A DNA stretch of 46,401 nt from a virus (Duplodnaviria > Caudoviricetes). Position numbers and translations under genes: made by a program. Below, piece after piece: positions 1 through 44,145 of this stretch (its first letter is position 1; each line of letters begins with the position of its first letter). The notes beneath the pieces are model-generated. The model ran no database searches and was not told the origin of the DNA. It saw only the letters and a program-made list of their open reading frames with translations. Location: IMG/VR virus record IMGVR_UViG_3300025030_000180, positions 1-46,401 of that record, one strand, 5' to 3'.

Positions 1-220
1 CGGCTGCCGCTGTGCAAAAAATAAGAAAAACAGCCATGGCCCCACGGTCGGCCGCCCTCCTCATCGTGTCGCCGAATCGCAACGATACCCTGAAATCTTC
101 GACCTGCTTGGCATCGTCCACATTTACGCCAAGGATGGCAAAAACCTGCTTGACGGCTTTCTCGGCCGCTTTCTCGGCGTGCTCGCAGTGCCCGTCTGGC
201 GGGCATTTTGGTGGTGTCAT
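1..220 (-). CDS. Putative holin-like/small membrane protein (3' end outside window)
   Basis: Read manually: ATG at 220 after AAGGA; MTPPKCPPDGHCEHAEKAAEKAVKQVFAILGVNVDDAKQVEDFRVSLRFGDTMRRAADRGAMAVFLIFCTAAA, with a hydrophobic segment starting at the window edge; lies at the end of the late operon. Confidence 0.5.
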   Translation of the reverse strand, partial: MTPPKCPPDGHCEHAEKAAEKAVKQVFAILGVNVDDAKQVEDFRVSLRFGDTMRRAADRGAMAVFLIFCTAAA

Positions 221-693: not shown

Positions 694-1368
694 TCAGATT
701 GAGTCATTGCCCCACACGACTCCGGCCAGGCAGGAGTCGTTGTCCTCGGCGCACCCTTTGGCCTGTGCAAACAAAATATCCTGCTTCGCGCCGGCCGCTG
801 CCTTTGCCGTTGAGAAGTCGGAAAAAAGAGTCTGTATCTGCTGGATGTTGTGAACCATCATGCTGTTGTCGCCATCGATCAAAACCGGCAGGGACATCGA
901 TTGTCCAGAGATAATCCCGGCCAGGATGTAGGTCATGTACTCCCCGGTGGATAGATATTGGTGGGGCTCTCCGAGGGCTGAACTCGTGACGGGTGTAGCC
1001 AGGGCGGCATCACACCAGGTCTTTATCTGTTTGACCTTGCTGGCTACCCTCTCCGCCCAGGGGATGCGGGAGGCTGTCCACGTCCTTGTGACGCTCGGGC
1101 CTTCGGTCCAGGTTGCCACTGGGCCGGAAAGGCGCTCGGTTTCCGGGTTGTAAGCCGGGATAGCGTCGGTCATCTCAAAGGCCCCAACGGCCGCTACCTC
1201 TGCCGCCATTGGGTGATTGCTCAGGGTGTAGACCGGCAGTAAGGTTTTCCAATGCCGCGCGGTTTCCGTTATGAGCGGCGCGCCATCCACATCGATGGCC
1301 TTGCAGTAATCTGCCGATGCATTGCCACAAAGGGAAAATATTGCCAGGATGATTATAATGTATCTCAT
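694..1368 (-). CDS. Signal-peptide-bearing tail fibre assembly-like protein (DUF4376-like C-terminus)
   Basis: AAGGAG RBS before MRYIIIILAIFSLCGNASA; PAYNPETERL..W..SVTRTW and VTSSALGEPHQY resemble phage tail-associated proteins; two NDS motifs at the C-terminus. Confidence 0.6.
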   Translation of the reverse strand: MRYIIIILAIFSLCGNASADYCKAIDVDGAPLITETARHWKTLLPVYTLSNHPMAAEVAAVGAFEMTDAIPAYNPETERLSGPVATWTEGPSVTRTWTASRIPWAERVASKVKQIKTWCDAALATPVTSSALGEPHQYLSTGEYMTYILAGIISGQSMSLPVLIDGDNSMMVHNIQQIQTLFSDFSTAKAAAGAKQDILFAQAKGCAEDNDSCLAGVVWGNDSI

Positions 1369-1378
1369 ATTATGCTCC

Positions 1379-2212
1379 TTATTCGGTTGTGTATCGCCCA
1401 GTTTTCGGCGTAAAATTCTCTGCATACTCCGCCGGGATCACCTTGTTGATTCGGAACTCCGCCATGGCCCCATCGTACGAATATCCAGCGCCGCCTTGGA
1501 ATTGGCCCAACCTTAATGAATATGTGGGATCTGAGGTTGACGGAGCGTTGGCAGTTTTACTTAAATAGCTTCCCCAAACCCCGTCAATCGCGAGCCTCAC
1601 ATTATTTGAGGCAAGGCTTAGGTCACATGTTACAGCGACATGATGCCATCCCGCTGTGTCGTTTGGGTATGTTCCGAGTGATCCGGAAAGAACATGAGTC
1701 CCCGCGAAACCTCTGACAATATCTATCTGTATGTCTCTCGCATTGGTAATGTATAAAAAAATGCCCACGCTGGCTGATGATCCCGCAGTATTGTCAATAA
1801 TATTGATCCCGGAAACCCCAAAGCTGCTTGGCTTGGCCCTAAAATCCAACGACCATACTGCATTCGGAATATGCAAAAACCTAAAATCAGCAGCCGTAGT
1901 GGTTGACAAATGATCTCCGTCGGCATCAAATAGTCCCACCCCAGGAGATAGTGCCCAGGGATCAGTCTGCCCCGTATCGATTTGCGCATTACCAACTGCT
2001 GTAAACGCTGGAGCTCCTGGACCGACGGCTGTATTGGTAAATGTGGTGCTGGTATCAGCCCCGATCATAGGCAGCAAGACAAACGTATCGTTGCCGTTGC
2101 CACCTATTGAGGCAATCCCCGGCGTACTTGTCGCGATGTAGGATTGGAAAAAATCAGCACGCGCCGGAGAGCATAAAAGCAGCAGCGTCGCTATGATTTG
2201 TAAAATTTTCAT
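1379..2212 (-). CDS. Signal-peptide-bearing LamG/concanavalin-A-like domain protein (putative receptor-binding)
   Basis: MKILQIIATLLLLCSPARA signal; GNAQIDT, FDADGDHL, WHHVAVT, LAIDG and G.MAEFRI motifs typical of phage LamG-like domains. Confidence 0.75.
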   Translation of the reverse strand: MKILQIIATLLLLCSPARADFFQSYIATSTPGIASIGGNGNDTFVLLPMIGADTSTTFTNTAVGPGAPAFTAVGNAQIDTGQTDPWALSPGVGLFDADGDHLSTTTAADFRFLHIPNAVWSLDFRAKPSSFGVSGINIIDNTAGSSASVGIFLYITNARDIQIDIVRGFAGTHVLSGSLGTYPNDTAGWHHVAVTCDLSLASNNVRLAIDGVWGSYLSKTANAPSTSDPTYSLRLGQFQGGAGYSYDGAMAEFRINKVIPAEYAENFTPKTGRYTTE

Positions 2213-2214
2213 GA

Positions 2215-3468
2215 TCACCACACCACGTGGGAAGTTTTGCAGAAAATTTTACCGGCGGCTCCGTACCACCAGGCGACGAAATCAAACGTTGAAACATTTG
2301 TCGTCCCTGGGCCGGGGGAAGAATCATTCCCCCAGTCGCACCAGTCCCCCACGCTATCATTGGTGCCTGTCCCGAATGTCACGGTATCGTTGTCTGACAT
2401 TTTGACGTGGACCCACCGGAATTTCGTCCCGGTACGGGGGGTGAAAATCAACCGCATTGCGCTGTCATTGGTGTCGGCGCAATGGTAGTAATGTGATATC
2501 GAGGCGTCCACGGATTCGTTGCCGTGGCAGTTACCCATGTCCACCGGTTCGTCCAGGTCGTACCCCCCCACCAGGTACGCCTCACCAGATTTCACGTTCG
2601 CCGAGTCGTTGAAATTCGCCTGGCTCGTAAAAGTCTTGCCCCCGGTAAAGGCCTGCGCCGATCCGGTCAGGTGCCGGGTGTCGTTGCCGATATGGCTGTC
2701 TAGGTTCGCGTGGGTGTAAGCCCCGGCCCCGCCCAGGGATTGGTGGACTATGGAACTGTCATTGCTCGTGAGGATATCACCGGTCAAGGTGACACCGACG
2801 CCGGCGGTAAGATTGGTTTCGGTGCTGATATCCACGCACCCGGTACAAGTCAAACCGCTCGAATCGTCCACCCGACCGGAATCGTTGACGTCATAAGTCG
2901 ATTTGCGCATGGAGTCATTGACTGTCAAACTGGATGGTACCGCCGTGCGGCCGCCAGCGCCGACCAGAATATTCGTGCTTGTCAGAACAGAAGGTGAACG
3001 GACTGTATCGTTGACAGAAAGACTTGACGCCCCGACAACCACCCCGCCGCGGCCCACCATTACCAGATTATTCGCGAAATTGCTGTCATTGGTGACGGTG
3101 CCTGTGCCGGCCACCGAGCCCCATAGCGGTACTGTTGAGTCGTTGCCGTCAGACACGATAAACTTGCCATTCGTCCCAGCCGATTCCCCCCAAGAGGTCA
3201 GGCCGGAAAATGGAAAAGTGAACGGCGGTGAAACGCAATTCAGGCCGTCATTGCCGCATATAGTCCGGACGTTCAGGTTGCCGGATGAGTCGTTAAATCG
3301 AACGAGCGGACTGCTTCCCAACACTCCGGAGTCGTTAAACTGAATGGCTCCATCCCCACCTGTCCCACCGGGAATTCCTGAGCCTGACGACCCGCCCAAG
3401 ATCATCGGGCCGGCAGTGGCAAGAACCGGAAGCAGCAGAAATAAAATGCAAGCGATTGTCTTTTTCAT
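2215..3468 (-). CDS. Signal-peptide-bearing Gly/Ser/Thr-rich fibre-like protein with 14 N-D-S/T motifs
   Basis: MKKTIACILFLLLPVLATA signal; GGDGAIQFNDSG, KSTYDVNDSGRVD, THANLDSHI and QAFTGGKTF segments typical of phage fibres. Confidence 0.7.
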   Translation of the reverse strand: MKKTIACILFLLLPVLATAGPMILGGSSGSGIPGGTGGDGAIQFNDSGVLGSSPLVRFNDSSGNLNVRTICGNDGLNCVSPPFTFPFSGLTSWGESAGTNGKFIVSDGNDSTVPLWGSVAGTGTVTNDSNFANNLVMVGRGGVVVGASSLSVNDTVRSPSVLTSTNILVGAGGRTAVPSSLTVNDSMRKSTYDVNDSGRVDDSSGLTCTGCVDISTETNLTAGVGVTLTGDILTSNDSSIVHQSLGGAGAYTHANLDSHIGNDTRHLTGSAQAFTGGKTFTSQANFNDSANVKSGEAYLVGGYDLDEPVDMGNCHGNESVDASISHYYHCADTNDSAMRLIFTPRTGTKFRWVHVKMSDNDTVTFGTGTNDSVGDWCDWGNDSSPGPGTTNVSTFDFVAWWYGAAGKIFCKTSHVVW

Positions 3469-3471
3469 TAT

Positions 3472-3834
3472 CTACAGCCTCCGGTAATAAACCATGTAAC
3501 TGACGGTCCCAGTAGTGGTTACGTCAACATAGATCCCGTTCCTGATCTCCATAGGCGGATTGAAAGAAAGGGTTTGCGACCCGCCGGAACCGGTCAGCGT
3601 CCAGGCTGGATGAATTATCTTGCCGCCTGCCGCCGAGTCGTTATCGTAAGTGTTAATGGTGACGTTATTCGTGCCGTCAGGCGTGACCATGAGACCGTAA
3701 CAGTACCCCGGCTGAGTCATCGCCGCCGAGTCGTTTGTGAGCGCACTCGTAACCCACATTGGCGTATCGGTGAAGGCGAAAGCTGAGGCGCATGCGGCCA
3801 GAAGAAAAGCCAGGGAGATTATCAGTTTTTTCAT
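3472..3834 (-). CDS. Signal-peptide-bearing small beta-sandwich virion-type protein
   Basis: GAGG RBS; MKKLIISLAFLLAACASAFA signal; GLMVTPDGTNNVTINTYDN...F...NGIYV pattern seen in small phage structural proteins. Confidence 0.65.
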   Translation of the reverse strand: MKKLIISLAFLLAACASAFAFTDTPMWVTSALTNDSAAMTQPGYCYGLMVTPDGTNNVTINTYDNDSAAGGKIIHPAWTLTGSGGSQTLSFNPPMEIRNGIYVDVTTTGTVSYMVYYRRL

Positions 3835-3905: not shown

Positions 3906-6900
3906 CTACCGGGATAACTTGTTGTACTCGGTGACATATTTTTTCTTCACTTCGGCAATCTTCTGGGCGATTCTCTCTTCCCTCGCCTTGTCGTTTTTCT
4001 TTTGCGCCAGCTTCAATGTCTTGTTCAAAAGAGAAACTTGCTTGTCAGTCTGCCGATATGCGCCGGCAAGTCTGTATAATGGATCTCTGATAATTTCCCT
4101 CTTGCCTGCCGGGTCAGCATCCTTGAATCTCTTCAGCAGCAATTCTACCTTTTCGCTTTTCTCCCTGTACAATTTGGAATCACCATAGCTCGAATTGGCG
4201 CCGTACATCTTCCGGATGAACGGAGTTTTTTCTGCAGGAAGCCCGTTTTCTGAGAACATAGCAACCGGGAGGGAAAATATATCCTTGGCGAACCGTCCGG
4301 CTGATCCGGTCACAGTCTCGACAAGCATTTCGACTGTTTCAGGGGAAACGTCAATGGCGCCCTTCTCGAACTTGTCTCCACCGGTCAGCCTGTTCAGTCC
4401 TTGCACCCCGGCCTTGATGATGGGATTTACCGACTTGAAATACCGTTCGCTGTCCGGCTTCGGGTCGAACGGATTGGTGGCCGGCATCAGGTCCCCGCCA
4501 TGCCAAGCCTTATTCTCGGCCACCTGGACTACCGGGCGCATAAGCGTCGGCGTGAAGGTCTGCGCCACCGTGGCGGCCTGGATCGGGTTGAATGTGCCGG
4601 CCAAAGCCGTGGCGAAATTTACCGCCGCTTCGGTCTTATCATTTCCACGCCAGGCTGATGCCATTTCATTGCCAAGAACAAAAAAAACATTGTACCCGTA
4701 GGGCATGGGGATTTTAAAGTAGTCGCCCTTTGACCCCGGAATCATGAAAATCATATTCCGCTCGAACAGGGACGGCTTTTCGTGCTTCAGCTTATCGTAG
4801 TATGATTCACCGTCATCATCGTCTCCGCCCATCATCACGCCAAGGACATTGGTCAGCGCCCCGAGCCCGACAATGCCACCAGCAATTTTCCGCACGGTAG
4901 GACTTTTCACCAGATTCTTGATCATGGTGACGTTGCCCTGAATACCGGCGTTGGCGAACATGACGATTGAATTGAGGAACGGCCCGACCGTCCCATGCTT
5001 CGTGAAGTCTACCGTCAAGCCTTTCGCCGTCTGGGCGGCCTTGTTCTTTTCCACACCAGCCTCGACAAGTGCCTTGTAGGTGGCAAGCCTGACACCATTT
5101 TCGACTGATATGCTCGCCTTGCCGATAATTTCGGTGTATTTTCTCCACGTTGCCCGTGCGGGGTGCTTGCCTTCTTGCGTCTCAAGTTCCTTCTGCAGTT
5201 CCTTGGCAAGTTCCTGGACATTCTCGTATCCGGATCTCCAAGAAATTTTACCACCGTGCTCGGAATAGTCGCGGTGCCATTGCGCCATTTCGGACGAATA
5301 ATCCCCGTGCTCTGCCTGGTAAATTCCCCTGATCACCGTCGGCAGCGACTTGACGATTGCCCATTTCATGTTCTTCGCTTCAGTGGCCGTCAGGTGGATC
5401 GTGGCAGTTTGCAGATCTTTGATGAAGTTCGACATCAAGAACTCAGGCGCGGCCACGGTGTTCAAGGCCGCCATGATGCGAACTGCGTATCTCGACGCCC
5501 TGGTGATCGGGCCAAGGTCATTCGCCTTGTAATTTATCGCGGCCATCCACCGCAACATCGGCTTGTTGTCTTTCGGAACGCTGACGATGTAGACCTTGCC
5601 GTCAACTTTGACCTTCGTTTCGTTTTCCGACAGGGACAGGCTCATGTCCTGGTAATACCTGACATTCCCTTCCTTGTCGCGGTACGGCTTCTTTTCGCGT
5701 TCGACAATGGACCACTTCGATTCATCCGGGTTTTCCTTCACCATCTCGTAAAGCGCCCGGCCAGCTTCAAGGTTGTACTTCCTGCTGATGGCGGCCTGGT
5801 AGCGGTCAATGACGTGGGCGAAGATGTCAACAACTCCCTTGGTCGATCCAGAGGCCATTTTGATCGGGCTTGCCAGCGGACCGGTGCCAGGCTTGCCGGT
5901 TGGCTGGCGGTTATCTTCCATGTCCTCACGGTAAAGCGGAACGTGGAACTCGTAAGTGCCGCTTATCGCCCGGTATTCATCCTCGGTGATCTCTCCGGCC
6001 TCAAAGTTAGTTTCAAGCGCCTGCTCGTTTATGGCTCTCAGTCTTCTGGTGGCCTCGAATATCGGACTTCCAGCCTTATGGCTTGCGACCACCTCGGCAG
6101 CCTGCTCGTCGGTCATTCCGGAGAGACGGCCCTTCACATCGTTCCATTTCTCCGCGACCTTCACGCGAGCGGCAAGGCGGTCACGCTTGTTGTCGATCCG
6201 GTCTTGATGATACTGCCTGGTCTTGTCCTCGATGTCGTCGCGGACATCAAGAGCGTCCTGGTCTGCGTCGATTTCGGCGGCCTGTTGCCTTTGCGTTCTG
6301 ATTTCCTTTTCTGAAATTTCATCCATCATGCCCACGTAGTTGTCGCGGCGCTCGTTAAGCGTCTGCTGATCCATGACGAACTCGGTGTTGACGTCGAACA
6401 ATCTCTTGGCGTATGGCCCCTGTTCTTTCTCGGTCATCTGCGCCACAAGGGCGTCGATGTACTGCCGGGCATTGACTCGCCGCATTTGTAGGTTGCGCTC
6501 AGGTGCATGTTGCGCCCAGGCCAGGCGCTCAAGGTCCGGGATGGTGATCTTGTTGTCAGCAAGGAACTTCAGCAGGGGCTTGAGTACATCCCGGTCGAAC
6601 ACTTCAATTTCGCTTGCCGTTTTCGTGCCGACTAATCCCCGGAGCAAGGCATAATCCCTCGTCACCGGTTGTGGCCCGACTTCGCGCTGCACACGCTCAA
6701 TCGCTATGTCTTTGTCCCAAAGGTACGTTCCTACCTGCTCATAAAGCTCTGGGGCGTTTTGGAGTATTCCCATCGGGCGAGGAGTGGCCCCGGTCGCTTC
6801 GTGGTATTCTGCCGTGCTATTCAGTCGGGCAGCTCCGGCGATATCACCGGCCAGCAGGGCGGCGAGAATCGGGTCTGACTCCTTGGAGAAAAGTGGAGCC

Positions 6901-9900
6901 TTGGCCGCCGCCGCTATTTCGGCCTTGCTGTACCGGATGTCGTCGGTGAAGGGCGAGAATTGGCCGGTGTTGCCGATGGCGGATTTTATTTGGTCGGGGC
7001 TAAAGATTGCCACAATGTGCGAAACCTTCCACGGCCCTACAGTAGAAATTGAACCGTCAGCCATATGGGTGAATACCACCGAGTCGCTTCCTTCTTTTTT
7101 TGCCTCGCTGATCGTTTCCTTTAAAAAACCTTCCCTGTACGCCCCACCGCTCATATCCCAAACTGTAGGATTCTCTACCTTCAAGAAAACGGGGTAAACG
7201 CTGGCCCCGACGGAACGTCCGGCGAAATCATCCGCTACCCCCGGCTTACTCGTAAAAAAGAACGTCCCTTCGGTATCCGCCCCCAATGTCCCGGACCCGG
7301 AGTAATCGTCAGAAAACTCGTTGAAATCCGCCTGCGTTCCGTGGTACATGACTAGCGGTTCGCCATTGGCGTCCACCACCCGGCTGTCCCCGAACCACTC
7401 CTTAAACGCCTCAGTCCGAGTTTGCACCCACTGCCTTTCGTTCAACTTTGTCGGCTGGCCGTTGGGGGCCTTCATCCACTGCGAATCCCCAAGCCTAGAA
7501 ATAACCCGCCCCTTTTTGTCAACTCTATACACTCGGGACGCTGGTATTTCATGGAACCCATCGCCACCTATTCCTGGCCCCCATTGAGGCTCAAGAGAGA
7601 CCATGGCCCCGTATTGACCCCTTTGCACATTGCGGAGGTCGCTTTCCCGGACCGCCAACCACACATCTCCACCAAAATCAAATCCAGGTTTTTCAACAAA
7701 GCTCCCGCCACCAAGCCCTTCTTTTTTGATCAACTCAAGGTCTTTGCTTTTGGTGTTATGGAATACCCACCCGGAACCAAGTTTTGTCCCCGCCTTGATA
7801 TCTTTGAACTTCTCGACCACCGCGTCATATTGGCTCTGTGCCTCGGCTACCGTGATCCCAAACTGCTTGCTGAACGCCGCAACCGCATCACCCATCGCCG
7901 CCCGTTCCTCGGCCCCGACATTCTCAGCGAACCTCTTAAACCGGCCAGTCACCGCCGCGATAATCTCATCCGGCGTGAACCGACCAACCGGCAGGCCAAC
8001 TCGCCGCATCCATAGTTTGATCGCCGTCCAGAGCCGCCGATACCAGGGGGACGTGTGGTTTGATGGTTCTTGAGAATGATAACCGATCGCCTCCTCGGTG
8101 CGGACCTCGGCAGGGGTATTGGCCGGCACACGAGCAAAGGCCGCTTGCACGGACTTGTCGGTCGCCCGTGCCGCCTCGAAGTCAGCCTTGATCTTGCCGA
8201 ACAGCTTCATGAAACCCGAATCTTCACGGCTCAGAAGGTGAATCGCTTCGTGGGCCAGGACGTAACGGGTGTCGCCGGCCCGGAGACGGTCGGCTACCAG
8301 ATAGATCTTGCCGTTGTGGTATGCGCCTACAACAGAGCCAGACCTGGAGTAAAGAGCCTTGATGCTTATGTCGTCGTCGCTGAAAATGACGTAGTTGTAA
8401 TTACCCTCACCCTTGCCGCGACTGGTGCCGTCCAGATATTTGATGCCCCTGATTCCGAGAGAGTGAAGATATTCGGAGGCGGCCTTATCGCTATCAAGCC
8501 CATCCGCAATATACCTATATAAATAGCTCCCCCTGTGCGTCTGGCTGATCTCGCCCTGCGCGAAGTCTGAATTCGCAGCCAGTGCAAACCGTACATTTTC
8601 GCTCTGCTCGCTTAACGGTTTATCCCAAAGCAAATACTCGTCTTCTTTTGGTTCCAGTTCTACCTCATACAGGGCACCTATTTCTATCGATATTTGATCT
8701 TTTTGTATCTGGGATAGATATTCAACCATTGCATCGAAGTAAGCGGCATTAACTTTTCCAGGATTATTTTTTTCACCCCACGCTCGGAACGATAGAAGTT
8801 TTTTTATTTCGTTTTCTTTTGCGCTCTCAAACGATTCCCCATCTTCGTACATTCTGTCTATTATGCTGGCGGCAGCGTTATCAAGTGATGCTTTTGTCCC
8901 CGAGAAAACAACGTCCCTCCCGTTAAAATTAGGGCGGTTATCGGTGAGAGATTTACGGTAAAATTCGGCCACCGCACGGCTTGACGCCATGTACAATCCG
9001 TGCCCATAAGCCTGAGCCCCTTCCCCAGTGCCTATTTTTTCGGTACTGAACTTATCAAACCGGTGCGGCGACCCATGCCAAGCGGTCATAAACAACCCGT
9101 CCTGACGCACCCCATCCGGCAACCCGCTCTCATCCACCACAACAACCAGCTTCCCGGCCTTCACCATATTGTCATGCCCAACGCCAAGGTACTCGCGGGA
9201 CTCGGCGGTGACTTGCGCGACGGTGCGGTTGGTTGACGGGGTGGTGGACTTGGAGAACAGACTTTCAGCAGGCTTACTCTTTTCTGAACCTCCCGACTTG
9301 TCAATAACCACCATCCGCGCATTGGCTCCCGTCGTAACCGGCAGAGACGGGTCTTGGAACGTGTCGCCCTCCAGCTTTTCAGACGTGCCGCCGACCGACT
9401 CCAGCCACTCGCGGAACGCTACGGCCTTCTTGTCCTGGCCGAAGAATACGCCCTCACCCATGAGCGCCACAATCTTGCCGCCCGGCTTCAACAGCGTGTA
9501 AGCGTGCTGAACGTGCTCGGCGTCTCGGCGATTGCTGAACGGGGGATTCATGACGATCCGGTCGTACTGGCTGGGGACAACCTTATCTTCTGATTTTATC
9601 TGCTCCCGCAACGAAATAATCTGTTCGTTTACCCTGTCAGCATCAGCATTTCCCGTGGTGGTTCTGGCCCGTGTGGCACTCCCATTGTGGAAACGGGCCA
9701 TTTGCTTTTCTCTAATAGAATCTCTTTTCTTCAGCAAAGCATCTAGTTCTTCTTGTAACGGTGATGTACCAGTTTTACCAACATCCATGAAGTCCTGTCC
9801 GACCACGTTGAAACCCTTGGCGTCCAGCAGTTCGCGTCGGTCGCTGGCCATCTCCGCCACGTCAGGCTCAACACCAGCCTCGCGGATCTGCTCAGCAATG

Positions 9901-12900
9901 TGCCCCATGCCAGCAGACGGCTCAAGGACGGTCATACCCAGCCGGATCCCGGCGGCGTCAAGCATGGTCTGCACCGTGCCAGCCGGAGTCGGGAAGAAAT
10001 CAAGGCTGTCATTGCGGCGCCCAACCATGGCGCGTTCGAGCTGCTTTACTTTGCTCGGCCTTTCAGCAGCCTCATTCAGCGCGATAAATTCCCGCAAAGC
10101 AGACCGCAGTTCCGCCGGGGACTCAATGCCCATGGCGGCGAGTCGCGCCCGGTTCTCCTGGACCGACTTCAAATACCATTGCGGCTCTTTCATCTTCCCG
10201 AGAATTTCCTCGACAAAATCAGCCCGCAGCGTAATTCTCTTGTCCTCTGCGCCCGGCCAGATCCCGCGCTCCTTGGCCAGCTCAGGCCCCATGATCACAC
10301 GGTGCTTACCGCGCCCTTCCTGGAAGGATACCGCTTTGCCTTTGTAACCTGACCGCGCTATGGCCGCTTCTGCCGCTTTCTGTGTGGGGAATACTGGAGG
10401 CTTGCCGCTGGCTGTAAAGCTGGACAACTGCGCCAGATGGTCTTTAGCAAACGCTTTGTACTCGTCGGTCACGTCGTTGGCCACCTTAAGCAGCCGCTCG
10501 CCAATCAGCTTGGAGCCATCGATAGCGGATAGTTCCCGGCCTATCCTCGCCCAGGTGGACGTAAAGGTGGTGTACTTTGGGAACTCCGCTTTATCGACTG
10601 TCTCATTGGTGTATGGGTCGTAACGGTGCTTTTCGTAGTCGGAGTATTGCGGGTATTCGGCGTACCGTGCGTCATATAGGAACTTTTGCAGCAGCTCAAT
10701 GTGGACTTTGGCGCGGACCTTATCAAGGAATACCGCCGATCCATCTTTTATGGCGGCGGCAATGTTGCGCATCGTCTTTGCCAGGGCAACGTCAGCACTG
10801 GCAGACGCCTCGGCGCTCGCGGCCTGCGCGGCCCGGCGGCTGGTATTCGCTTTACGATCCTGAGACAACGACGCCTGCGCTTTCGCTTCCAGGGCGTCAG
10901 CCATGGCCGCCAGACGTTCAGCTCCGGTCTGTTCCTTCGCGGCTCCACGCTCCTCCACGGCAGCGGTGGCCGCTTCGGTGTCACCGGTCATGAACTTCTG
11001 GAACGCCTCGGCAGCGGCGCGCGTCTTGAACTGGAATCCCGGCACAGCCCCGGCGCCACGAAATGACGAGTAGTGGCCGCCCATCCGCTTGGCCGCCGTG
11101 TTCCAAGCGTTGTAAGCATCACGAGCCACACGCTCGGCTGGCTTGACGACGAACAGCGGCTCCCCGGTCTTGGTGTGCTTTGTCTCGATGACTTCGCCGG
11201 TGGTCGTAACGGACGCGGCGACGACGGGGGGTTTCTCTGCTCTCTTGCCCCTGGACTCCTCAGCCTCCAGACGGTCCCATTCCGCAAGCTGGTCAGAACT
11301 TAGCTCCTCAAAAATATCATTATTGCTTTTGCCTCCTTGACGTTTCAACTCAGCCATGCGCCTAAAGTCCACAAGCGTCTTAGGATTCTTTACGCCCTCA
11401 AGCATCTCGGCCCGTTCGGCTCGTCGCGCTTTAAATTTCTCGGCGTAAGCGTCGAGGTTGGCCTGCGTCAGACCTGCGACTATGGCGTCAATGGCCTTGA
11501 TACGTGCGTCAGGTCCAATCCCTGAGTATGAAAACATTCCAGAATTATTGAGATACGCAAAGGATGTCTCAAGGTCATTCGCCACGGACCGCACGTATTC
11601 AGCTTTATTATCTGCACGGTTGTAGCCGCTTGACAGCTTTTTCAACTCTGCGACGGTCTTCTTCCGCAACTCATCTTCAAGCGCTGGACGCGACGCCCGG
11701 ACTCTGGAGTAAGCCTCTTGGACTTGCGGAACCGTAGCCTCACCTTTCATGAGGAGCTTTACGAGGGATTCATGGTCTGCCAGGGTATACGGTGCCGTCC
11801 CGCTTATTTCCTGGACCCCGGCTGCCGGCTTTTCTTCTTTACTCACCGCATCAAGCCGTTCTTTCGCCTGCTGGACAAGGGCGAGCTTCAGGGCATTCTC
11901 TGGGTCTCTTGCCAGCATGTCCCGTGCGTTTTCGAGTTCTCGCTGCCGGGTTGTGACGGTGAGCGAGGCTTGCGGCTCAACTCTTGCTGCTTCTGGTACA
12001 ATGTCCCCAGAAGGCGGCACATTTCTTCCCGGTTTATCGGGTTCTTCGGTTCGCCCACGTTGCACCTCCTGTTTGGTATCCGAAATACTTTGGGTTTGTA
12101 GCCCCGCGCCGGTCGTCACCGGCTCCGATTTGCGGTCGGCTTGCGCCGGTCCTGTGGGGTGCTCTTGTTGTACAGGGGCCACCTCAGCCACCGGCGCTTG
12201 CTCAGTAGGCTGTACAGTCTGCGGCCCCTCTGGTTTCAACAGCCCTTCTTGGTTCCTTTCTTCATTGGTTTTCTCCTGTTGAGGTTTAAGTATCGCGTCA
12301 ACGGCCTGCTCGGTACGCAAGCCGTCAGCGGCTTTCAATGCGTCTCCGTTTGCCCGTGCTTTTGCTTCAAGTTCTGCCGCCTTGCTATGGTTGCCCTTGG
12401 TTCTCAAAGCCGTGGCGATGTCCATGGGCTGCTTCACGGCATCCCTGACGATATGATCCGCCTGTTCTGCTTCACCGGTGACCCCCATCTGGTTCAGCGT
12501 GGCTATTTGCTCAGGTTTGCCTATTGCGTTGGCGAGCCTTACCGCCGTGCTGAACAAATCAGGATATTCAGCGAGAACGTGTGGTGGAACTGGCTTACCC
12601 TCTTCAAGGGCTTGCTTGACGATCCCCCACTTGTGGGCCGCCATTGCTTTCGCGCGATCTTCCGCCCGCCACTTTAAATTTTGCTTGGACCCTATGTACT
12701 TTTCGTAAGGAGACTGCCCATGTTGATCCGCTCCAACCCATTCCGCACTCGTCATTTCCCACGGCTGTTTTACCGCCACACCCTCTCCGGGCTGTTCCGC
12801 AGGCCGAGCCGAACCGCCGCCGCCAGGCTCTTGACCGGCGGCTCCTCGCGGCCCAACCACAGCACCCTGACCACCCACATCCCCAACCGGCGCTCTATCG

Positions 12901-15296
12901 CTACCGGCAATGTTCGTGCCTTCACCCTTCTTTACTCCTTGCGCTCGGATAGGCTCGAACGGGTCCACCTCAACCCGGACGCCATCCTGAAAAATGTAAT
13001 TGCCATCTTCGGTGCCTTTCAACTCGTATTCGTCAACTGGGTGATCACCGATGCTGCCGTAAACCTTGTCGCCCTTCTCAAGCTGGCCGGCCACCATATT
13101 CTGAGGGTTGCCGAGTGAATCAATCTTCGGCTCGAATCCCTTCCTCACCATTTCGTCAACGCCGCTGAACCGGTCGCCGGCCTGGTCCTCGCTGGTTTCG
13201 TATTTCTGCCGGAGTGCGGCCATGGACGGTGACGCCTTCAACTGCTCCACCATGTCGTCAAGGCCGGAGAAACCGTTGTCAATGGCGAACTCATCCGGCG
13301 CGGCTTTGCTCTTGCCGCTGAACATGCCGGGGTATTTTTTCAGGAGCATGTTTACCGTGTCAGCGTCATAATCTTGACGCAAGGCGGCAAGGCTCAACGG
13401 GCGCTTCTTCGCGGACTGGACGGCGGCGAAAAGCGGATTCGAGCGGACAACGGCCTCTTTCTCGGCCTTGATGCTTTCGGCGGTGCGCTTCTGCTCGATG
13501 ACGCCTGGGATACCGGCCTTCTTTGTGCGGATCTGGTAGCCGCCCCCAGGGGCTGGGTAGACTTCATACTCGTCAGCCTTGAGCGTTCCTTTTACGCCGC
13601 GCTGTCGCAATGACTCAGCCGCCCCGGCCTGCGTCTTGAATGCCCTACCGATAATCACCTCTGGATTCTGCGCCACTCCGGCGGTGTACGGTTCGGTCGG
13701 CGAGACCCCGGAGCCCGGCGCTTTTCTGATCACCGTCGCTGGCGCCGGGTCCGCCATCGTGAAACCACGCTCCGGCATCGGCAGGAGCGGTGGTGTTGCG
13801 GCCATGCCCTGAATACGCTGGACGTTCTGGCTGAACTGATCGTTCCGGGAGGTAGTCGCCGCCGCGATGTTTTCGTTCTGCGCGGCAAAGTCGGTCATGA
13901 GCCCTTCACCGTACCGCTGAATCGATTCCCGTTCTCTTTCGGCTGTCTGAGCAGCAAGCCTTTCCCTGTCCGCCACGAATCCAGCGGCCAGGTCTTCACC
14001 ATGCTTCTTGATGGCAAGCGGGTTGCCTACGGACTGCTGGAATGCGGCAATGGCCTCGTCGGTAGTCTTGGCCGTTGATATGCCCTCGTACCCATGCGTA
14101 GCGAGGAGCGAACTCACCTCGTCAGCCGTCACCCCAGCGGCCAGTATCTGCGGGAGGAGCGCATGCACTTCTTCCGGAGTGACGGCCCCGTCGGTAAGTT
14201 TGGTTTTGATCTGGGAAAGAAGGTCGGGCGGCGCTGGAGCCTCGGCGGGAGATAAGGCTGAATTAATTTTACCGGCAGCGTAAGCCCCGCTGCCTGTTAT
14301 TCCACCCATCAATAAGACTGCCGGGGCTACTTCCCTCACAGACTTCAACTGATCTTGCATGGAGGTCCATGACCTGCGCTCGCTCTCAGGCTGCATGCCG
14401 AGATCGACCTCAACGTTTTTGCCCCCGGTTTGCGTTACCGCTTCAGAGCCAAGCTCGAACCCGACAAGGCCAACGAAAGACTTCAAGGCCTTGGTGGTCA
14501 ACCCGCCACCTTTAAATATCTTCCCCATCAAGCCTAATTCAATCGCGTTGGCAATACCTTCCGGGCCAGCTTCCCAAAGTCCGTGCTCCCTCAAAGCATC
14601 CGCCACCTTTCCAGGCTCTAGGGCGGCGAACTCTTCGTCAGTGATGGTGCGGCCTTCCTTCTTGGATAGAGACCTCCTGTATTGACGGATGAAATTGTTT
14701 TTATCCATCCGGTAAGACGCGCCGCCTGATGCGGCGGCACTGCCCATGAATCCGAGAACACCACCTGCCAAGTTCCCGACCAATGGCACTTCTGATCCCA
14801 ACAGAGCCCCTGCGACAGTAGCGGCGACCCTTGGAGCTACGCCAGCCGCCATTGCAGCCCCGGAATAGCCCAGGCTTCCCATTCCACTTCGTATCTCTTG
14901 TCGAGTTACAGTAGTTCCTGGGACTGCTATTTCACTTGCCCCCGGAGCTTCATCAATCGTTGATTGCTCTGCCTGTCTGCCTTCGATAAACTGGTCTGCC
15001 CACCCATCCGACCTCATAGGATCGTCGAAAATAGAAGCGACAGAAGAAGCCACGTCCCCAGGGACTCGCAGCAAGCCTCTCCCTACATCCCCAACGGCCC
15101 CCATAACATTTGTCTTTGAGGGAGGATTCGCTACCGCCCACAAGTCATCAAGCACAAGGGATTGCTTGACGGGATCAAGACTCGAAAACCGGACATCACT
15201 CGACGCCATCGTCTTGACGACATCATTGAATACGAGCTTCTTTTTATCTTCAGGTAATCCTACGAAACGAGGGTCGTTAACGAAGGTTAAATTCAT
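3906..15296 (-). CDS. Giant polyvalent (DarB-like/LPD) internal virion protein: DNA methyltransferase, ART-like domains, HExxH metallopeptidase, LPD38-like C-terminus
   Basis: 3796 aa; MTase motifs DFFPTP, VLEPSAGMG, IVMNPPF; AWHGSPH..IGTGEGAQAYGHGLY and MYHGT..FFFTS..VYPVFL ART-like modules; LAHEAIH; C-terminal FANAGIQG..KIPMPYG..VAENKAW; located among ejection-protein genes. Confidence 0.8.
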   Translation of the reverse strand: MNLTFVNDPRFVGLPEDKKKLVFNDVVKTMASSDVRFSSLDPVKQSLVLDDLWAVANPPSKTNVMGAVGDVGRGLLRVPGDVASSVASIFDDPMRSDGWADQFIEGRQAEQSTIDEAPGASEIAVPGTTVTRQEIRSGMGSLGYSGAAMAAGVAPRVAATVAGALLGSEVPLVGNLAGGVLGFMGSAAASGGASYRMDKNNFIRQYRRSLSKKEGRTITDEEFAALEPGKVADALREHGLWEAGPEGIANAIELGLMGKIFKGGGLTTKALKSFVGLVGFELGSEAVTQTGGKNVEVDLGMQPESERRSWTSMQDQLKSVREVAPAVLLMGGITGSGAYAAGKINSALSPAEAPAPPDLLSQIKTKLTDGAVTPEEVHALLPQILAAGVTADEVSSLLATHGYEGISTAKTTDEAIAAFQQSVGNPLAIKKHGEDLAAGFVADRERLAAQTAERERESIQRYGEGLMTDFAAQNENIAAATTSRNDQFSQNVQRIQGMAATPPLLPMPERGFTMADPAPATVIRKAPGSGVSPTEPYTAGVAQNPEVIIGRAFKTQAGAAESLRQRGVKGTLKADEYEVYPAPGGGYQIRTKKAGIPGVIEQKRTAESIKAEKEAVVRSNPLFAAVQSAKKRPLSLAALRQDYDADTVNMLLKKYPGMFSGKSKAAPDEFAIDNGFSGLDDMVEQLKASPSMAALRQKYETSEDQAGDRFSGVDEMVRKGFEPKIDSLGNPQNMVAGQLEKGDKVYGSIGDHPVDEYELKGTEDGNYIFQDGVRVEVDPFEPIRAQGVKKGEGTNIAGSDRAPVGDVGGQGAVVGPRGAAGQEPGGGGSARPAEQPGEGVAVKQPWEMTSAEWVGADQHGQSPYEKYIGSKQNLKWRAEDRAKAMAAHKWGIVKQALEEGKPVPPHVLAEYPDLFSTAVRLANAIGKPEQIATLNQMGVTGEAEQADHIVRDAVKQPMDIATALRTKGNHSKAAELEAKARANGDALKAADGLRTEQAVDAILKPQQEKTNEERNQEGLLKPEGPQTVQPTEQAPVAEVAPVQQEHPTGPAQADRKSEPVTTGAGLQTQSISDTKQEVQRGRTEEPDKPGRNVPPSGDIVPEAARVEPQASLTVTTRQRELENARDMLARDPENALKLALVQQAKERLDAVSKEEKPAAGVQEISGTAPYTLADHESLVKLLMKGEATVPQVQEAYSRVRASRPALEDELRKKTVAELKKLSSGYNRADNKAEYVRSVANDLETSFAYLNNSGMFSYSGIGPDARIKAIDAIVAGLTQANLDAYAEKFKARRAERAEMLEGVKNPKTLVDFRRMAELKRQGGKSNNDIFEELSSDQLAEWDRLEAEESRGKRAEKPPVVAASVTTTGEVIETKHTKTGEPLFVVKPAERVARDAYNAWNTAAKRMGGHYSSFRGAGAVPGFQFKTRAAAEAFQKFMTGDTEAATAAVEERGAAKEQTGAERLAAMADALEAKAQASLSQDRKANTSRRAAQAASAEASASADVALAKTMRNIAAAIKDGSAVFLDKVRAKVHIELLQKFLYDARYAEYPQYSDYEKHRYDPYTNETVDKAEFPKYTTFTSTWARIGRELSAIDGSKLIGERLLKVANDVTDEYKAFAKDHLAQLSSFTASGKPPVFPTQKAAEAAIARSGYKGKAVSFQEGRGKHRVIMGPELAKERGIWPGAEDKRITLRADFVEEILGKMKEPQWYLKSVQENRARLAAMGIESPAELRSALREFIALNEAAERPSKVKQLERAMVGRRNDSLDFFPTPAGTVQTMLDAAGIRLGMTVLEPSAGMGHIAEQIREAGVEPDVAEMASDRRELLDAKGFNVVGQDFMDVGKTGTSPLQEELDALLKKRDSIREKQMARFHNGSATRARTTTGNADADRVNEQIISLREQIKSEDKVVPSQYDRIVMNPPFSNRRDAEHVQHAYTLLKPGGKIVALMGEGVFFGQDKKAVAFREWLESVGGTSEKLEGDTFQDPSLPVTTGANARMVVIDKSGGSEKSKPAESLFSKSTTPSTNRTVAQVTAESREYLGVGHDNMVKAGKLVVVVDESGLPDGVRQDGLFMTAWHGSPHRFDKFSTEKIGTGEGAQAYGHGLYMASSRAVAEFYRKSLTDNRPNFNGRDVVFSGTKASLDNAAASIIDRMYEDGESFESAKENEIKKLLSFRAWGEKNNPGKVNAAYFDAMVEYLSQIQKDQISIEIGALYEVELEPKEDEYLLWDKPLSEQSENVRFALAANSDFAQGEISQTHRGSYLYRYIADGLDSDKAASEYLHSLGIRGIKYLDGTSRGKGEGNYNYVIFSDDDISIKALYSRSGSVVGAYHNGKIYLVADRLRAGDTRYVLAHEAIHLLSREDSGFMKLFGKIKADFEAARATDKSVQAAFARVPANTPAEVRTEEAIGYHSQEPSNHTSPWYRRLWTAIKLWMRRVGLPVGRFTPDEIIAAVTGRFKRFAENVGAEERAAMGDAVAAFSKQFGITVAEAQSQYDAVVEKFKDIKAGTKLGSGWVFHNTKSKDLELIKKEGLGGGSFVEKPGFDFGGDVWLAVRESDLRNVQRGQYGAMVSLEPQWGPGIGGDGFHEIPASRVYRVDKKGRVISRLGDSQWMKAPNGQPTKLNERQWVQTRTEAFKEWFGDSRVVDANGEPLVMYHGTQADFNEFSDDYSGSGTLGADTEGTFFFTSKPGVADDFAGRSVGASVYPVFLKVENPTVWDMSGGAYREGFLKETISEAKKEGSDSVVFTHMADGSISTVGPWKVSHIVAIFSPDQIKSAIGNTGQFSPFTDDIRYSKAEIAAAAKAPLFSKESDPILAALLAGDIAGAARLNSTAEYHEATGATPRPMGILQNAPELYEQVGTYLWDKDIAIERVQREVGPQPVTRDYALLRGLVGTKTASEIEVFDRDVLKPLLKFLADNKITIPDLERLAWAQHAPERNLQMRRVNARQYIDALVAQMTEKEQGPYAKRLFDVNTEFVMDQQTLNERRDNYVGMMDEISEKEIRTQRQQAAEIDADQDALDVRDDIEDKTRQYHQDRIDNKRDRLAARVKVAEKWNDVKGRLSGMTDEQAAEVVASHKAGSPIFEATRRLRAINEQALETNFEAGEITEDEYRAISGTYEFHVPLYREDMEDNRQPTGKPGTGPLASPIKMASGSTKGVVDIFAHVIDRYQAAISRKYNLEAGRALYEMVKENPDESKWSIVEREKKPYRDKEGNVRYYQDMSLSLSENETKVKVDGKVYIVSVPKDNKPMLRWMAAINYKANDLGPITRASRYAVRIMAALNTVAAPEFLMSNFIKDLQTATIHLTATEAKNMKWAIVKSLPTVIRGIYQAEHGDYSSEMAQWHRDYSEHGGKISWRSGYENVQELAKELQKELETQEGKHPARATWRKYTEIIGKASISVENGVRLATYKALVEAGVEKNKAAQTAKGLTVDFTKHGTVGPFLNSIVMFANAGIQGNVTMIKNLVKSPTVRKIAGGIVGLGALTNVLGVMMGGDDDDGESYYDKLKHEKPSLFERNMIFMIPGSKGDYFKIPMPYGYNVFFVLGNEMASAWRGNDKTEAAVNFATALAGTFNPIQAATVAQTFTPTLMRPVVQVAENKAWHGGDLMPATNPFDPKPDSERYFKSVNPIIKAGVQGLNRLTGGDKFEKGAIDVSPETVEMLVETVTGSAGRFAKDIFSLPVAMFSENGLPAEKTPFIRKMYGANSSYGDSKLYREKSEKVELLLKRFKDADPAGKREIIRDPLYRLAGAYRQTDKQVSLLNKTLKLAQKKNDKAREERIAQKIAEVKKKYVTEYNKLSR

Positions 15297-19523: not shown

Positions 19524-20513
19524 TTAAAAGAGATAGGTGAAAATTAGATATGCGTATCCAGTCGGAGAGCCATACTTTCCCCATTGGATAGTGCACCCGT
19601 CCGCATCAAAAGACGCAACGTAGCCCCTTTGTCCTGCCCCGGCCCCATTTATGCAGGCTATTGACCAGCTTGTATCTTGTGCCGTCCCAGAAGAATTTGA
19701 GTAGCTGCATTGATGAGTGGTCCCGTCGTCCACCCCATTCCCCATAATTGTCCCGGCGGAATCGACAAAAGAAACGATCAACCCGCGAGGAGTGCCACCG
19801 GCCCCCGTGTATGATACAGTGCCAGTTGTCGCCGTCATGTCCCTACCAAACGCATTTATCACTTTCGGGGCTGCTATCCCGCCAGCGGCCGCGACTGTGG
19901 ATATATCAGCCGCGATACCTGCGCAAGTAGAAACCTCAGAATCAACGGCAGCCACCGCGGCGACATCGCCTGCCGGGATTGCAGCCACTGTCGTCACATC
20001 CGCACTTATTCCGGCGACAGTCGTCACGTTCGCCGATATTCCCGCAACAGTCGTCACATTCCCCGCGATCCCTGCAACAGTCGCCACATTGGTAATATTC
20101 CCGCCAGAAAGCCCCTGCATGTCGAATCCCGACGTGGCGGTTGCGTTGTAGCGGAAGGTATAAATCTTGTTCGCGATCAAGTCGCCGGCCACCAGGGCGG
20201 AACCATCCTGCCCACGAAGCGACTTGACGCCGATGCCGTTGACATTCATCGTCGCCGCCCCCGTGTTCGTGTGATTCGCCTTGAACACGATCAACTGCCC
20301 ATCCGTGTAGCTGCCAGTAATCGCCGTCAGCGCCAAGGTGTAGGCGTTCGCGCTGCCCCCGGAAGTCAAATAATTGACGGTCTCAAGTTTCATTTTCGTC
20401 TCGTCTGGAAGAAGTCCGAAAGCCGTTGCTATCGTGTCGGCCAGGTTATTTATGTGCGAAGTAAGCGCTCGGATAGCGGAAGCAATTGCCGCAGGCGGGG
20501 TAAACGTGCTCAT
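19524..20513 (-). CDS. Tail fibre/needle-like protein with 10-aa VTTVAGI repeats
   Basis: GGSANAYTL..YTDG..FKANHTNTGAATMNVNG head-proximal module followed by NVTTVAGISA repeats. Confidence 0.7.
   Translation of the reverse strand: MSTFTPPAAIASAIRALTSHINNLADTIATAFGLLPDETKMKLETVNYLTSGGSANAYTLALTAITGSYTDGQLIVFKANHTNTGAATMNVNGIGVKSLRGQDGSALVAGDLIANKIYTFRYNATATSGFDMQGLSGGNITNVATVAGIAGNVTTVAGISANVTTVAGISADVTTVAAIPAGDVAAVAAVDSEVSTCAGIAADISTVAAAGGIAAPKVINAFGRDMTATTGTVSYTGAGGTPRGLIVSFVDSAGTIMGNGVDDGTTHQCSYSNSSGTAQDTSWSIACINGAGAGQRGYVASFDADGCTIQWGKYGSPTGYAYLIFTYLF
19900..20095 (-). repeat. Degenerate 30-bp coding repeats (N/D-V-T-T-V-A-G-I-x-A)
   Basis: Repeated cagtcgtcac/cagtcgccac units at 30-nt spacing. 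Confidence 0.7.
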
Positions 20514-42045: not shown

Positions 42046-43155
42046 TCATCCCTTAATGTTCAGCAGTGGCTTGACGTGCGCAACAACCTCAACCATCTCG
42101 GTTTGTTGGCGCATCACATCAAAGATGCTCTTGTACGCAAAGGGCGATTCATCGAGCGTCTCTGCTGTTACCAGCGCAACCACTCCGCTCATTGTTCCGG
42201 TGAATTGCTCCATGTTCAAAGTGCGCTGCGCTTCCTTGCGCCCAAGCACACGGCCTGCGCCGTGTGAGCTTGACCACAAAGCGTCTGCATTGCCCTTGCC
42301 GCGTACGATAAAGCTGCCGTCCCGCATATTGCCGGGTATCACGCCCATCATCCCGGCCTCGGCGTGTGTAGCCCCCTTGCGGTGAATCCACAGCCCGTCT
42401 TTCAGTTCCGCGTGGTTGTGGTTTCGGTTTATCAGCGCATCCCAATCCCCAGCACCTGAACAGTTCGCTGAAAGCACGGTCTCAATTCGGCGCATGATTT
42501 CGCGCCGATTCTCAAGCGCCAGTTCAAGGCAAAAACCCAAGTCAGCGATGTAGTTAATCCCGTTTGTTTCGTTCACGTCAAAACCTAAATGACCCTCCCG
42601 CGCTTTCCCATCACCACTTGCCAACCGCATGTAGTGCGATGCAGCCGCGTGGCCTATGCCGCGTGATCCTGAATGAATCACAACCCAAACCTTTCCGGTT
42701 TCGTCTGCTCCAACTTCCGCGAAGTGGTTGCCCCCTCCCAAACTCCCTATCTGGCGTAGCCCGTTCTTGTCGAAAATCTCCTGCATCTTCGCAGTACGCG
42801 GCAAGCCGCTGTAATCCCATTCGGTGTTTTTCTGGTTGTGCGAAAACCCGACCGGAACGGCCTTATAAATCCCGTCGAAGATGGCCTTTGCTTTTTCCTT
42901 CACCTCGCCCGCCTCGAAGGTAGTTGGCAGGGCGCACATCCCGCACCCGATGTCATAGCCCACCCATGAAGGCAGTATCACTCCATCGGTTGCAACCACT
43001 GCGCCGATGGGCAACGAGTACCCCGCGTGCGCGTCAGGCATTAGCGCTCCACGAACAACAAAGTCCTGTTGCATGGCGCTTTCAAACTGGTTCAATGCCT
43101 CCTGTTCAAGCACTTCCGCAAATATCTTGTAAGGCTTGTCGGTATTGATGTTCAT
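42046..43155 (-). CDS. rtcB: RtcB family RNA 3'-phosphate/5'-OH ligase (cassette 3)
   Basis: MPDAH.G..PIG, VGYDIGCG, GSLGGGNHF, HSGSRG, HNH, HRKGAT and SSSHGAGR motifs all intact. Confidence 0.95.
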   Translation of the reverse strand: MNINTDKPYKIFAEVLEQEALNQFESAMQQDFVVRGALMPDAHAGYSLPIGAVVATDGVILPSWVGYDIGCGMCALPTTFEAGEVKEKAKAIFDGIYKAVPVGFSHNQKNTEWDYSGLPRTAKMQEIFDKNGLRQIGSLGGGNHFAEVGADETGKVWVVIHSGSRGIGHAAASHYMRLASGDGKAREGHLGFDVNETNGINYIADLGFCLELALENRREIMRRIETVLSANCSGAGDWDALINRNHNHAELKDGLWIHRKGATHAEAGMMGVIPGNMRDGSFIVRGKGNADALWSSSHGAGRVLGRKEAQRTLNMEQFTGTMSGVVALVTAETLDESPFAYKSIFDVMRQQTEMVEVVAHVKPLLNIKG

Positions 43156-43456: not shown

Positions 43457-44065
43457 TTAATCATTGATGGCGGCAATAATCAAATCAGCCGTTGTCGGGA
43501 AGGCTTCGGCCTCTTCCATCGTTTTTGCGTCAACGATGTCGAACTTAGCTGCAGAGAGGTCATCATCCAGGCTCTTGAGATAGGCGGCAGCACCAGCGTC
43601 GCGGCCAACTTGGACGAAGAGGATGGTCAACGCATCATCGGTTTCCTGTTTGTGGGAGGCCTCAACAATAACTTTCGCAGCAGCAGCCTTGTCATCCGGC
43701 GTACCATCGGTGAAGACGATGATGAAGTCCTTCTTTTCTGACTTCCCGGCAAGTTTCAGCGCAGCCGTCAGAGCCTCGGCCAAAGGCGTTGACCCGCTGG
43801 GGCGGTTAGCGGCAAACACGTCTTTGATTTTTTGGACGTTTACACCATCTTCGGAGACGACACTTGTTCCGCTGAACAGCACCAGGCCAAGACCATCGCT
43901 ATCAAACTTTTCAACGTCCCGGCAAAGGGCAACGGCGCTTTCCTGGACAGCATCCCATCTGGAGCGGCCACCAGGCATATCGGTTTCACCCATTGATCCG
44001 GACTTGTCGATAACAACAACGAAATCATACTCACTCAACAATGCTTCCTTTTGATTCTGTTCCAT
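43457..44065 (-). CDS. vWA domain protein (cassette 4)
   Basis: GAGGT RBS before MEQNQ; MIDAS motif DKSGSM, GSTPLA.AL, FTDG.PD and FVQVG.D. Confidence 0.9.
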   Translation of the reverse strand: MEQNQKEALLSEYDFVVVIDKSGSMGETDMPGGRSRWDAVQESAVALCRDVEKFDSDGLGLVLFSGTSVVSEDGVNVQKIKDVFAANRPSGSTPLAEALTAALKLAGKSEKKDFIIVFTDGTPDDKAAAAKVIVEASHKQETDDALTILFVQVGRDAGAAAYLKSLDDDLSAAKFDIVDAKTMEEAEAFPTTADLIIAAIND

Positions 44066-44145
44066 TTCCAATACCTCGTATTGAGATTTATCAAAGTTTA
44101 TGGGCCAATCCCATAAACGTAGTGCGTTACTTTCGTGGTCTTGCT

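Follow-up and report, generated by a model that had tools for sequence, protein, structure and literature searches.

A candidate exported fibre module with an excess of Asn-Asp-Ser/Thr motifs in a podovirus-like virus record

Introduction

In textbook tailed phages all structural parts are assembled in the cytoplasm; that fibres, tailspikes and decoration proteins can be added late, or to particles in vitro, is well established from T4, P22 and lambda. Here we describe a cassette of four consecutive genes (positions 694-3834, minus strand) in the virus record IMGVR_UViG_3300025030_000180; the window analysed is this entire linear record of 46,401 bases, which is 70% complete. Each of the four predicted proteins begins with a signal-peptide-like leader, and together they carry an excess of the tripeptide Asn-Asp-Ser/Thr (N-D-S/T) that is real and far above chance. 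The reading that we tentatively prefer, at slightly less than an even chance, is that the four genes encode an accessory fibre module which is exported through Sec, is added to the virion when the cell lyses or later, and is tagged at N-D-S/T by a host enzyme.

Several described glycosylation systems come close to this locus. In Bacteroidota, O-glycosylation occurs at D-S/T-(A/L/V/I/M/T), where Asp is needed before Ser/Thr and a hydrophobic residue is preferred after it; the likeness (PMC12871550) lies in a short Asp-before-Ser/Thr motif, in the restriction to non-cytoplasmic proteins and in periplasmic modification, whereas in the present proteins Asn precedes the motif and D-S/T-hydrophobic is not in excess where Asn is missing. 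As for the oligosaccharyltransferases PglB and STT3, N-D-S/T is a valid N-X-S/T sequon, free of a strict acidic residue at -2 and situated on predicted exported proteins; the difference is that X is here nearly always Asp, and the accessible parts of the pertinent papers describe no enzyme that prefers Asp at +1, the characterised Desulfovibrio PglBs being relaxed at -2 and DgPglB and DmPglB being relaxed at +1 as well, where they show a mild preference for Ser or Ala/Ser (PMC4894442, PMC12229607). The O-glycans of the anammox S-layer follow GT/S (10.1101/2020.12.03.409086), and none of these three rules matches N-D-S/T.

With regard to the proteins themselves, the MAT fibres of Bdellovibrio are mosaic phage-tail-fibre-like proteins that also begin with a signal peptide; they are predator adhesins that share an N-terminal domain of about 130 residues and often have an S74 chaperone (PMC10769870), whereas the genes studied here lie in a phage virion operon with jelly-roll, LamG and DUF4376 partners. 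Glycosylated virions have been described as well, including those of the archaeal tailed virus HRTV-DL1, whose attachment protein is rich in sequons and which gives faint bands on glycostaining (PMC10384203), and of mycobacteriophages (Freeman 2023, as cited in PMC10955285). They have in common with the present proposal a sugar on structural proteins, and the accessible parts of these sources describe no exported fibre module of a bacterial tailed phage. A literature search, outside which lay most subscription journals and supplements, likewise found no account of bacterial tailed phages with an exported fibre module, nor of an N-D-S/T sequon.

The N-D-S/T excess

The four genes of the cassette are as follows.

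3472..3834, minus strand: 120-residue small jelly-roll protein with a leader (about residues 1-20); N-D-S at N34 and N65.
2215..3468, minus strand: 417-residue fibre-like protein with a leader (residues 1-19); 14 dispersed N-D-S/T (residues 45-381) and nine Cys.
1379..2212, minus strand: 277-residue LamG/ConA-like lectin domain protein with a leader (residues 1-19); N-D-T at N41 and N184.
694..1368, minus strand: 224-residue DUF4376-type protein with a leader (residues 1-19); N-D-S at N210 and N221.

The probable starts of the last two genes are 2212 and 1368, and the 224-residue form of the last protein is present in a public collection while a 243-residue form is not. An earlier, sequence-only reading of this DNA had counted 30 Asn in the 417-residue protein, 17 of them in N-X-S/T and 14 in N-D-S/T, and two N-D-S/T in each of the other three proteins; these counts are exact. 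For the 417-residue protein 6.4 N-X-S/T and 0.53 N-D-S/T are expected, and the shuffle test suggested at that time bears the excess out, with 0 of 2000 shuffles reaching 14; for the 224-, 277- and 120-residue proteins the p values are 0.002, 0.010 and 0.001 respectively. In the four proteins pooled there are 20 N-D-S/T against 0.92 expected, Ser or Thr comes next in 20 of the 21 N-D pairs, and no tripeptide is more over-represented than NDS (15 copies, p ~5e-19). The flanks of the 14 fibre sites are all different, and their Poisson p of ~5e-16 compares with 1e-4 for the best of 2456 other open reading frames (ORFs) gathered. It had also been noticed that signal-less proteins of this phage are free of the motif, and indeed eight signal-less structural proteins contain none (1.2 expected). 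All 39 listed frames outside the cassette, mostly minus-strand ORFs and a few of them probably spurious, have a single one between them, in the 3796-residue protein.

At the DNA level all 20 copies of the pattern lie on the coding strand, at the 20 in-frame sites, and the opposite strand has none; the Ser/Thr codons are mixed (11 TCN, 4 AGY, 5 ACN), and Tandem Repeats Finder reported no repeat in the cassette region. Since the sites are confined to the coding strand, draw on both serine codon families and form no tandem repeat, selection appears to act on the protein, as had been proposed from the mixed codons; the absence of the motif from 149 homologues of the jelly-roll protein, and its acquisition by substitution in this phage, agree with this. 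An origin as a DNA repeat or a restriction site was rejected on the codon mixture, the in-frame position of all sites and the absence of a tandem repeat. A calcium-binding origin of the RTX kind was rejected too, with G before only 5 of the 20 sites, no 9-residue period and no Pfam hit.

The selected unit appears to be the whole tripeptide. With N-D-S/T held fixed, the four proteins contain 5 other N-X-S/T against 6.4 expected and 6 other D-S/T against 8.7, and an apparent depletion of other sequons largely disappears, which restricts the claim to these being not enriched. X is Asp in 20 of the 25 N-X-S/T sequons, and Asn precedes D-S/T in 20 of 26 cases, the residue after Ser/Thr being varied. 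The Bacteroidota-type motif D-S/T-(A/L/V/I/M/T) reaches 11 against 5.5 expected overall, with Asn before all 11 and 0 against 3.5 expected where Asn is missing. Thus neither a general N-X-S/T excess with varied X, as a relaxed PglB/STT3 would leave, nor a D-S/T-hydrophobic excess regardless of the preceding residue, as the Bacteroidota system would leave, was found in these proteins, and the acidic residue at -2 of the Campylobacter-type PglB rule is present at only 4 of the 20 sites.

Leaders and probable export in the wider family

Leaders were called by a purpose-made heuristic plus reading by eye. Across this genome the heuristic flags the four proteins and one antisense frame only, in keeping with the original observation of leaders on all four consecutive ORFs. 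By heuristic and eye, all four have the basic n-region, hydrophobic h-region and small residues at -3 and -1 of substrates of Sec and signal peptidase I, with visible AxA-type ends read as ASA/D, ARA/D, ATA/G and AFA/F (the slash marks the end of the leader). Export of the four proteins via Sec is, on these features, very likely.

The 120-residue protein has 482 homologues at E<=0.001 (E, expectation value), and the family counts given here refer to the best 150 of these matches. A hydrophobic leader is present in 127 of the 150 rows and missing in 23, and signal-less homologues begin at about the predicted start of the mature domain, which strengthens the earlier proposal of export; an AxA-like site occurs in 110 of 120 regex-defined family leaders against 44% of control windows. 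The gene next to the jelly-roll gene also has a leader in 45 of 66 viral and metagenome loci by a lax pattern (41 after removal of four by eye). In several types of phage the leader-bearing jelly-roll gene lies within a block of virion genes, and in some loci (L153, L154, L161 and L165) it stands there alone. In a quick-method family tree (94 columns) the 23 signal-less rows are scattered, with 18 changes of which only 3 are forced by strong branches, and some of these rows resemble truncated gene calls. In three contigs from metagenome-assembled genomes (MAGs; L146, L148 and L149), signal-less jelly-roll homologues lie between two genes that by eye are heptosyltransferase-like, beside a phage-adaptor-like gene.

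Ten related phage genomes were compared at the slot downstream of the big ejection-type gene. G001, G002 and G008 have 3, 3 and 7 leader-bearing genes there, G006, G007 and G009 have signal-less small-protein-plus-fibre genes and G005 has one small signal-less gene; in G003 and G004 the slot continues to integrase-like or lysis genes, and no such cassette was seen in G010. The signal-less fibre of G006 is homologous to a leader-bearing fibre of G008 (E 2.4e-12). The first one or two genes of the slot in G001, G002 and G008 are small and signal-less, and the leader-bearing fibres come after them, an order that would fit a cytoplasm-made particle adaptor that catches exported fibres. The seven-gene exported cassette of G008 (C1:46330-56968) includes two proteins with near-identical first ~100 residues. 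Taken together, these comparisons make a genuine and widespread export route probable.

What the four proteins are

The sequence-only reading had called all four genes tail-fibre-type, which stands for the 417-residue protein and fails for the jelly-roll, LamG and DUF4376-type proteins. An AlphaFold2 model of the 120-residue protein (138-row alignment; predicted local distance difference test, pLDDT, 95.5) consists of an N-terminal helix and a jelly-roll, with both N-D-S in predicted loops; the surface-exposure check proposed earlier covers this protein. In fold and size it resembles Bacillus Ena pilins (7a02), PBSX XepA and SPbeta YomS (6i56, 6i5o) and the trimeric KHP40 cement protein (7dou), all tied at Z 7.1-8.0, and an Ena pilin is the top match (Z 8.0, root-mean-square deviation 3.9, 99 aligned); because the matches are tied and identity is 6-14%, no fold family can be assigned. 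The best viral match is a 94-residue uncharacterised Caudovirales protein (template modelling score, TM, 0.89 by target). This protein is likely the base or adaptor of the module.

Look-alikes of the 417-residue protein in the ESM Atlas all belong to viral clusters, one set of which has the PF26209 tail-fibre C-terminal domain in 44% of its members, and the protein has short motifs in common with other phage proteins. No full-length homologue of it was found, word-based homologue searches with the 417- and 120-residue proteins returned self-matches only, and its single-sequence fold (pLDDT 31.5) is unusable. Fibres that follow a leader-bearing jelly-roll often begin their mature part with G-P-x-I/V-x-G-G (window 3259-3468, 19 loci, in an alignment, A3, whose rows were picked for that very likeness); this is possibly a docking peptide.

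The 277-residue protein matches LamG (PF13385, E 2.2e-10) and is likely the receptor-binding tip; by eye, a leader is present in 1 of its 14 homologues (P0161). The 224-residue protein resembles DUF4376 (PF14301; ESM Atlas feature score 0.92, TM 0.75), a PF16778 Phage_tail_APC cluster also appears, and there is a weak PHROG tail-fibre match (E 0.01); its N-D-S at N221 lies within a short C-terminal tail. From its gene context we take it to be tail-fibre assembly chaperone-like. No cultured relative was found by tblastn of one jelly-roll family member (P0005) and the 224-residue protein against 50,697 phage records. A fibre-type protein with assembly and tip partners, in a late operon after an ejection-type gene, is what characterises a phage tail-fibre module, and all of this is present here; the whole reads as an architecture of base, fibre, lectin tip and assembly factor.

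Distribution of the motif

N-D-S/T occurs in 0 of 149 jelly-roll homologues, where T-A-D-A and D-N-T-A of the family correspond to T-N-D-S and D-N-D-S in this phage; 2 of the 149 have N at the first site, and 1 has D at the second. No sequence-motif excess was found in the leader-bearing cassettes of G001, G002 and G008. An unrelated phage that shares RtcB (73%) has three leader-bearing genes (L435:3093-6707, G416:C1) in which D-S/T-(A/I/L/V/M/T) occurs 16 times against 4.1 expected (0 of 2000 shuffles), and this Bacteroidota-type imprint implies that the exported proteins of a phage can be rich in a host tag of a known kind. Ten phage records that share RtcB have no jelly-roll, and in seven of them, examined whole or largely, there is no N-D-S/T-rich leader protein.

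A triple N-D-S/T DNA pattern, a search that is insensitive to widely spaced motifs, matched in 39 of 401 genomes of the phylum of a Smithella MAG (described below) and in 18 of 121 Planctomycetota genomes. No host emerged from this: the matches listed or opened are RTX, tandem or DNA repeats, or proteins with <=3 scattered sites. The same type of pattern in viral contigs (9 of 64 parts, 118 loci) found repeat proteins only. A signal-less 867-residue phage-like protein (L447:8961-11564, G058) contains six tandem V-N-D-T/S-I repeats.

On these comparisons the N-D-S/T tag appears to be new and, to date, confined to this phage. Export and tagging are separate traits, export being common to the wider family and the tag presumably a local adaptation to the host of this phage.

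Host and genome setting

Among named genomes, the capsid protein has its nearest relatives in a Smithella MAG (62% over the full length) and in a Planctomycetota MAG (69%, residues 206-354), and another MAG of the Smithella phylum (L145/L183) has the same cassette layout. STT3 was found in G219 and G355, and 23 of 151 genomes of the Smithella phylum score above the cut-off for it. A search for a link through clustered regularly interspaced short palindromic repeats, made with 20 kb of the DNA against the 401 genomes, found no array at the two short matches, out of three, that were checked.

Library scans describe a podovirus-like genome with a terminase, an SU10-type portal and adaptor, a major capsid protein and a 3796-residue polyvalent protein, on the minus strand. 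The cassette comes directly after the giant gene, co-directional with it and within the late genes, and is followed by a small ORF that is interrupted by the end of the record. Two further features bear on the comparison.

3906..15296, minus strand: 3796-residue polyvalent protein, upstream context; LPD38, ART-PolyVal, methyltransferase-like; no leader, one N-D-S/T.
19524..20513, minus strand: signal-less 329-residue tail-fibre-type protein, internal control; phrog_4900 tail protein, E 2.4e-10, no N-D-S/T.

The position of the giant gene is the usual one for an ejection protein, and its product has no cysteine and is likely ejected into the host. The small ORF after the cassette (2-220, minus strand), cut by the record start, matches phrog_6420 (E 0.0013) and continues into a hydrophobic stretch; it is presumably the beginning of the lysis block. 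At 42046-43155 and 43457-44164 an RtcB RNA ligase gene adjoins a VWA-domain gene, possibly a pair for anti-defence RNA repair, and in another locus (L338) the RtcB match is interrupted by ~550 bases, the next ORF resembling a homing endonuclease. The record stops within a DUF4116 repeat gene (46051-46401), and there is a contig of 57,903 bases. The window proteins that were scanned include no recognised glycosyltransferase, about 30% of the genome being missing from the record. In the glycosylated mycobacteriophages the glycosyltransferases are phage-encoded.

Discussion

According to the reading that we prefer, the four proteins would pass through Sec late in infection and have their leaders cleaved; in the periplasm the fibre, with its nine Cys, would be disulfide-bonded and would trimerise with the help of its own assembly factor, and a host enzyme would glycosylate every N-D-S/T, which along the fibre comes roughly once per 26 residues. 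When the cell lyses, the completed appendage would encounter the particles, with the jelly-roll as its docking part. The parts of this scheme differ in strength. That N-D-S/T is a modification tag, most probably for a sugar, is likely from the sequence evidence, and the virion is somewhat the likelier destination than the cell surface. The sugar may sit on Asn, in which case the oligosaccharyltransferase would insist on Asp at +1, or on Ser/Thr, through a Bacteroidota-like O-system with a fixed Asn; the two options are in near balance with a slight lean to Asn.

Several observations weigh against this scheme. Sugar motifs are not enriched in the 155 leader-bearing proteins examined, which come from 73 of 108 loci (N-X-S/T 350 against 332 expected, N-D-S/T 23 against 25, D-S/T-hydrophobic 168 against 217), and glycosylation as the general reason for export thereby loses its footing. 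The genomes and viral contigs searched yielded no other phage or bacterium in which N-D-S/T is dispersed. STT3 was not found in the Smithella, Planctomycetota and same-layout MAGs; the genomes without a match are G011 (nearest capsid relative) and G235 (same layout), neither with a stated completeness, and G012 and G015. The phage owns a separate signal-less tail fibre (19524-20513), which implies that the exported module may be dispensable for the particle. To these are added the lipobox-type leaders and the occurrences of the motif in structural repeats and signal-less proteins, which belong with the first two of the alternatives that follow.

The most serious alternative, in our view unlikely but of real weight, is that the exported and tagged module is retained by the cell, infected or lysogenic, or by its vesicles as a phage-encoded surface adhesin, a pilus or a receptor decoy, comparable to the Bdellovibrio MAT fibres, and is never part of a virion. 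Lipobox-type leaders would allow membrane anchoring, and they occur on three of the seven G008 proteins, which are fibre-like (LMTGC, and LFVGC twice), and the leader of the 120-residue protein is compatible with a lipobox (LAAC); the top fold match of the jelly-roll is an Ena pilin, though tied with cement and XepA-type proteins, and the presence of the separate fibre is in line with this alternative too. On the other hand, the cassette is co-oriented inside a late virion block, the same slot is filled in relatives by signal-less homologues, the jelly-roll is found alone among head, neck and tail genes, and a lipobox is present in only 1 of 120 family leaders, that of this phage.

It is rather improbable that export is real and N-D-S/T is an unmodified structural or ion-binding turn, such as an Asx/ST turn or a calcium site. 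The motif does arise structurally: it is common in the GGxGNDT repeats of RTX proteins, and signal-less phage proteins have it in TFNDSS repeats. The first two fibre sites are paralleled in signal-less proteins, which a search for that very site pattern had brought up, one LamG site is matched by N-D-S in 1 of 14 homologues, and at site 2 an ordinary N-X-S/T stands in 37 of the 149 homologues of the jelly-roll. Yet four unrelated protein families carry the motif in this phage, with no periodicity and 14 different flanks along the fibre, all 149 jelly-roll homologues do without it, and so do the signal-less fibre and head proteins of the phage. As to the concern raised earlier, that cytoplasmic homologues may have the same turn, the jelly-roll homologues lack the motif, and two fibre sites and one LamG site do have counterparts in signal-less proteins.

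Very improbable is the explanation first advanced, in which a relaxed PglB of the Desulfovibrio type glycosylates ordinary N-X-S/T and Asp is incidental. The Smithella capsid relative, the layout shared within its phylum and the STT3 genes of that phylum are consistent with it, as is a D/E-X-N-X-S/T count of 5 against 0.98 in a plain shuffle. That count depends on the N-D-S/T excess, however, sequons with other residues at X are not enriched, and neither the strict +1 Asp nor its frequency is explained by enzymes that are relaxed at that position. Finally, the leaders might stay uncleaved as anchors, or be hydrophobic starts without function, on ordinary virion parts assembled in the cytoplasm. 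The heuristic nature of the calls and a median uncharged run of 18 residues in family leaders may be cited for this, but it is hardly credible in view of their n-h-c anatomy and AxA-like sites, of signal-less homologues that begin near the mature boundary, and of a motif excess that tracks the leader exactly within this genome.

Conclusions

In its broadest form, the proposal is that many tailed phages build a virion part outside the cytoplasm, a widespread jelly-roll-plus-fibre appendage that Sec secretes, that matures in the periplasm and that is fitted to particles at lysis, and which in the present phage is densely glycosylated at N-D-S/T by an undescribed enzyme, so that the fibre is cloaked in host glycan; this is possible, with the chances somewhat against it. 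If true, a conserved exported module would represent a second assembly compartment, in which phages borrow the disulfide and glycosylation machinery of their hosts for host recognition. A strict N-D-S/T tag predicts a host protein-modifying enzyme with a rule unlike that of PglB or the Bacteroidota system, and its interest for glycobiology and glycoengineering would hold even if the proteins sit on the cell surface.

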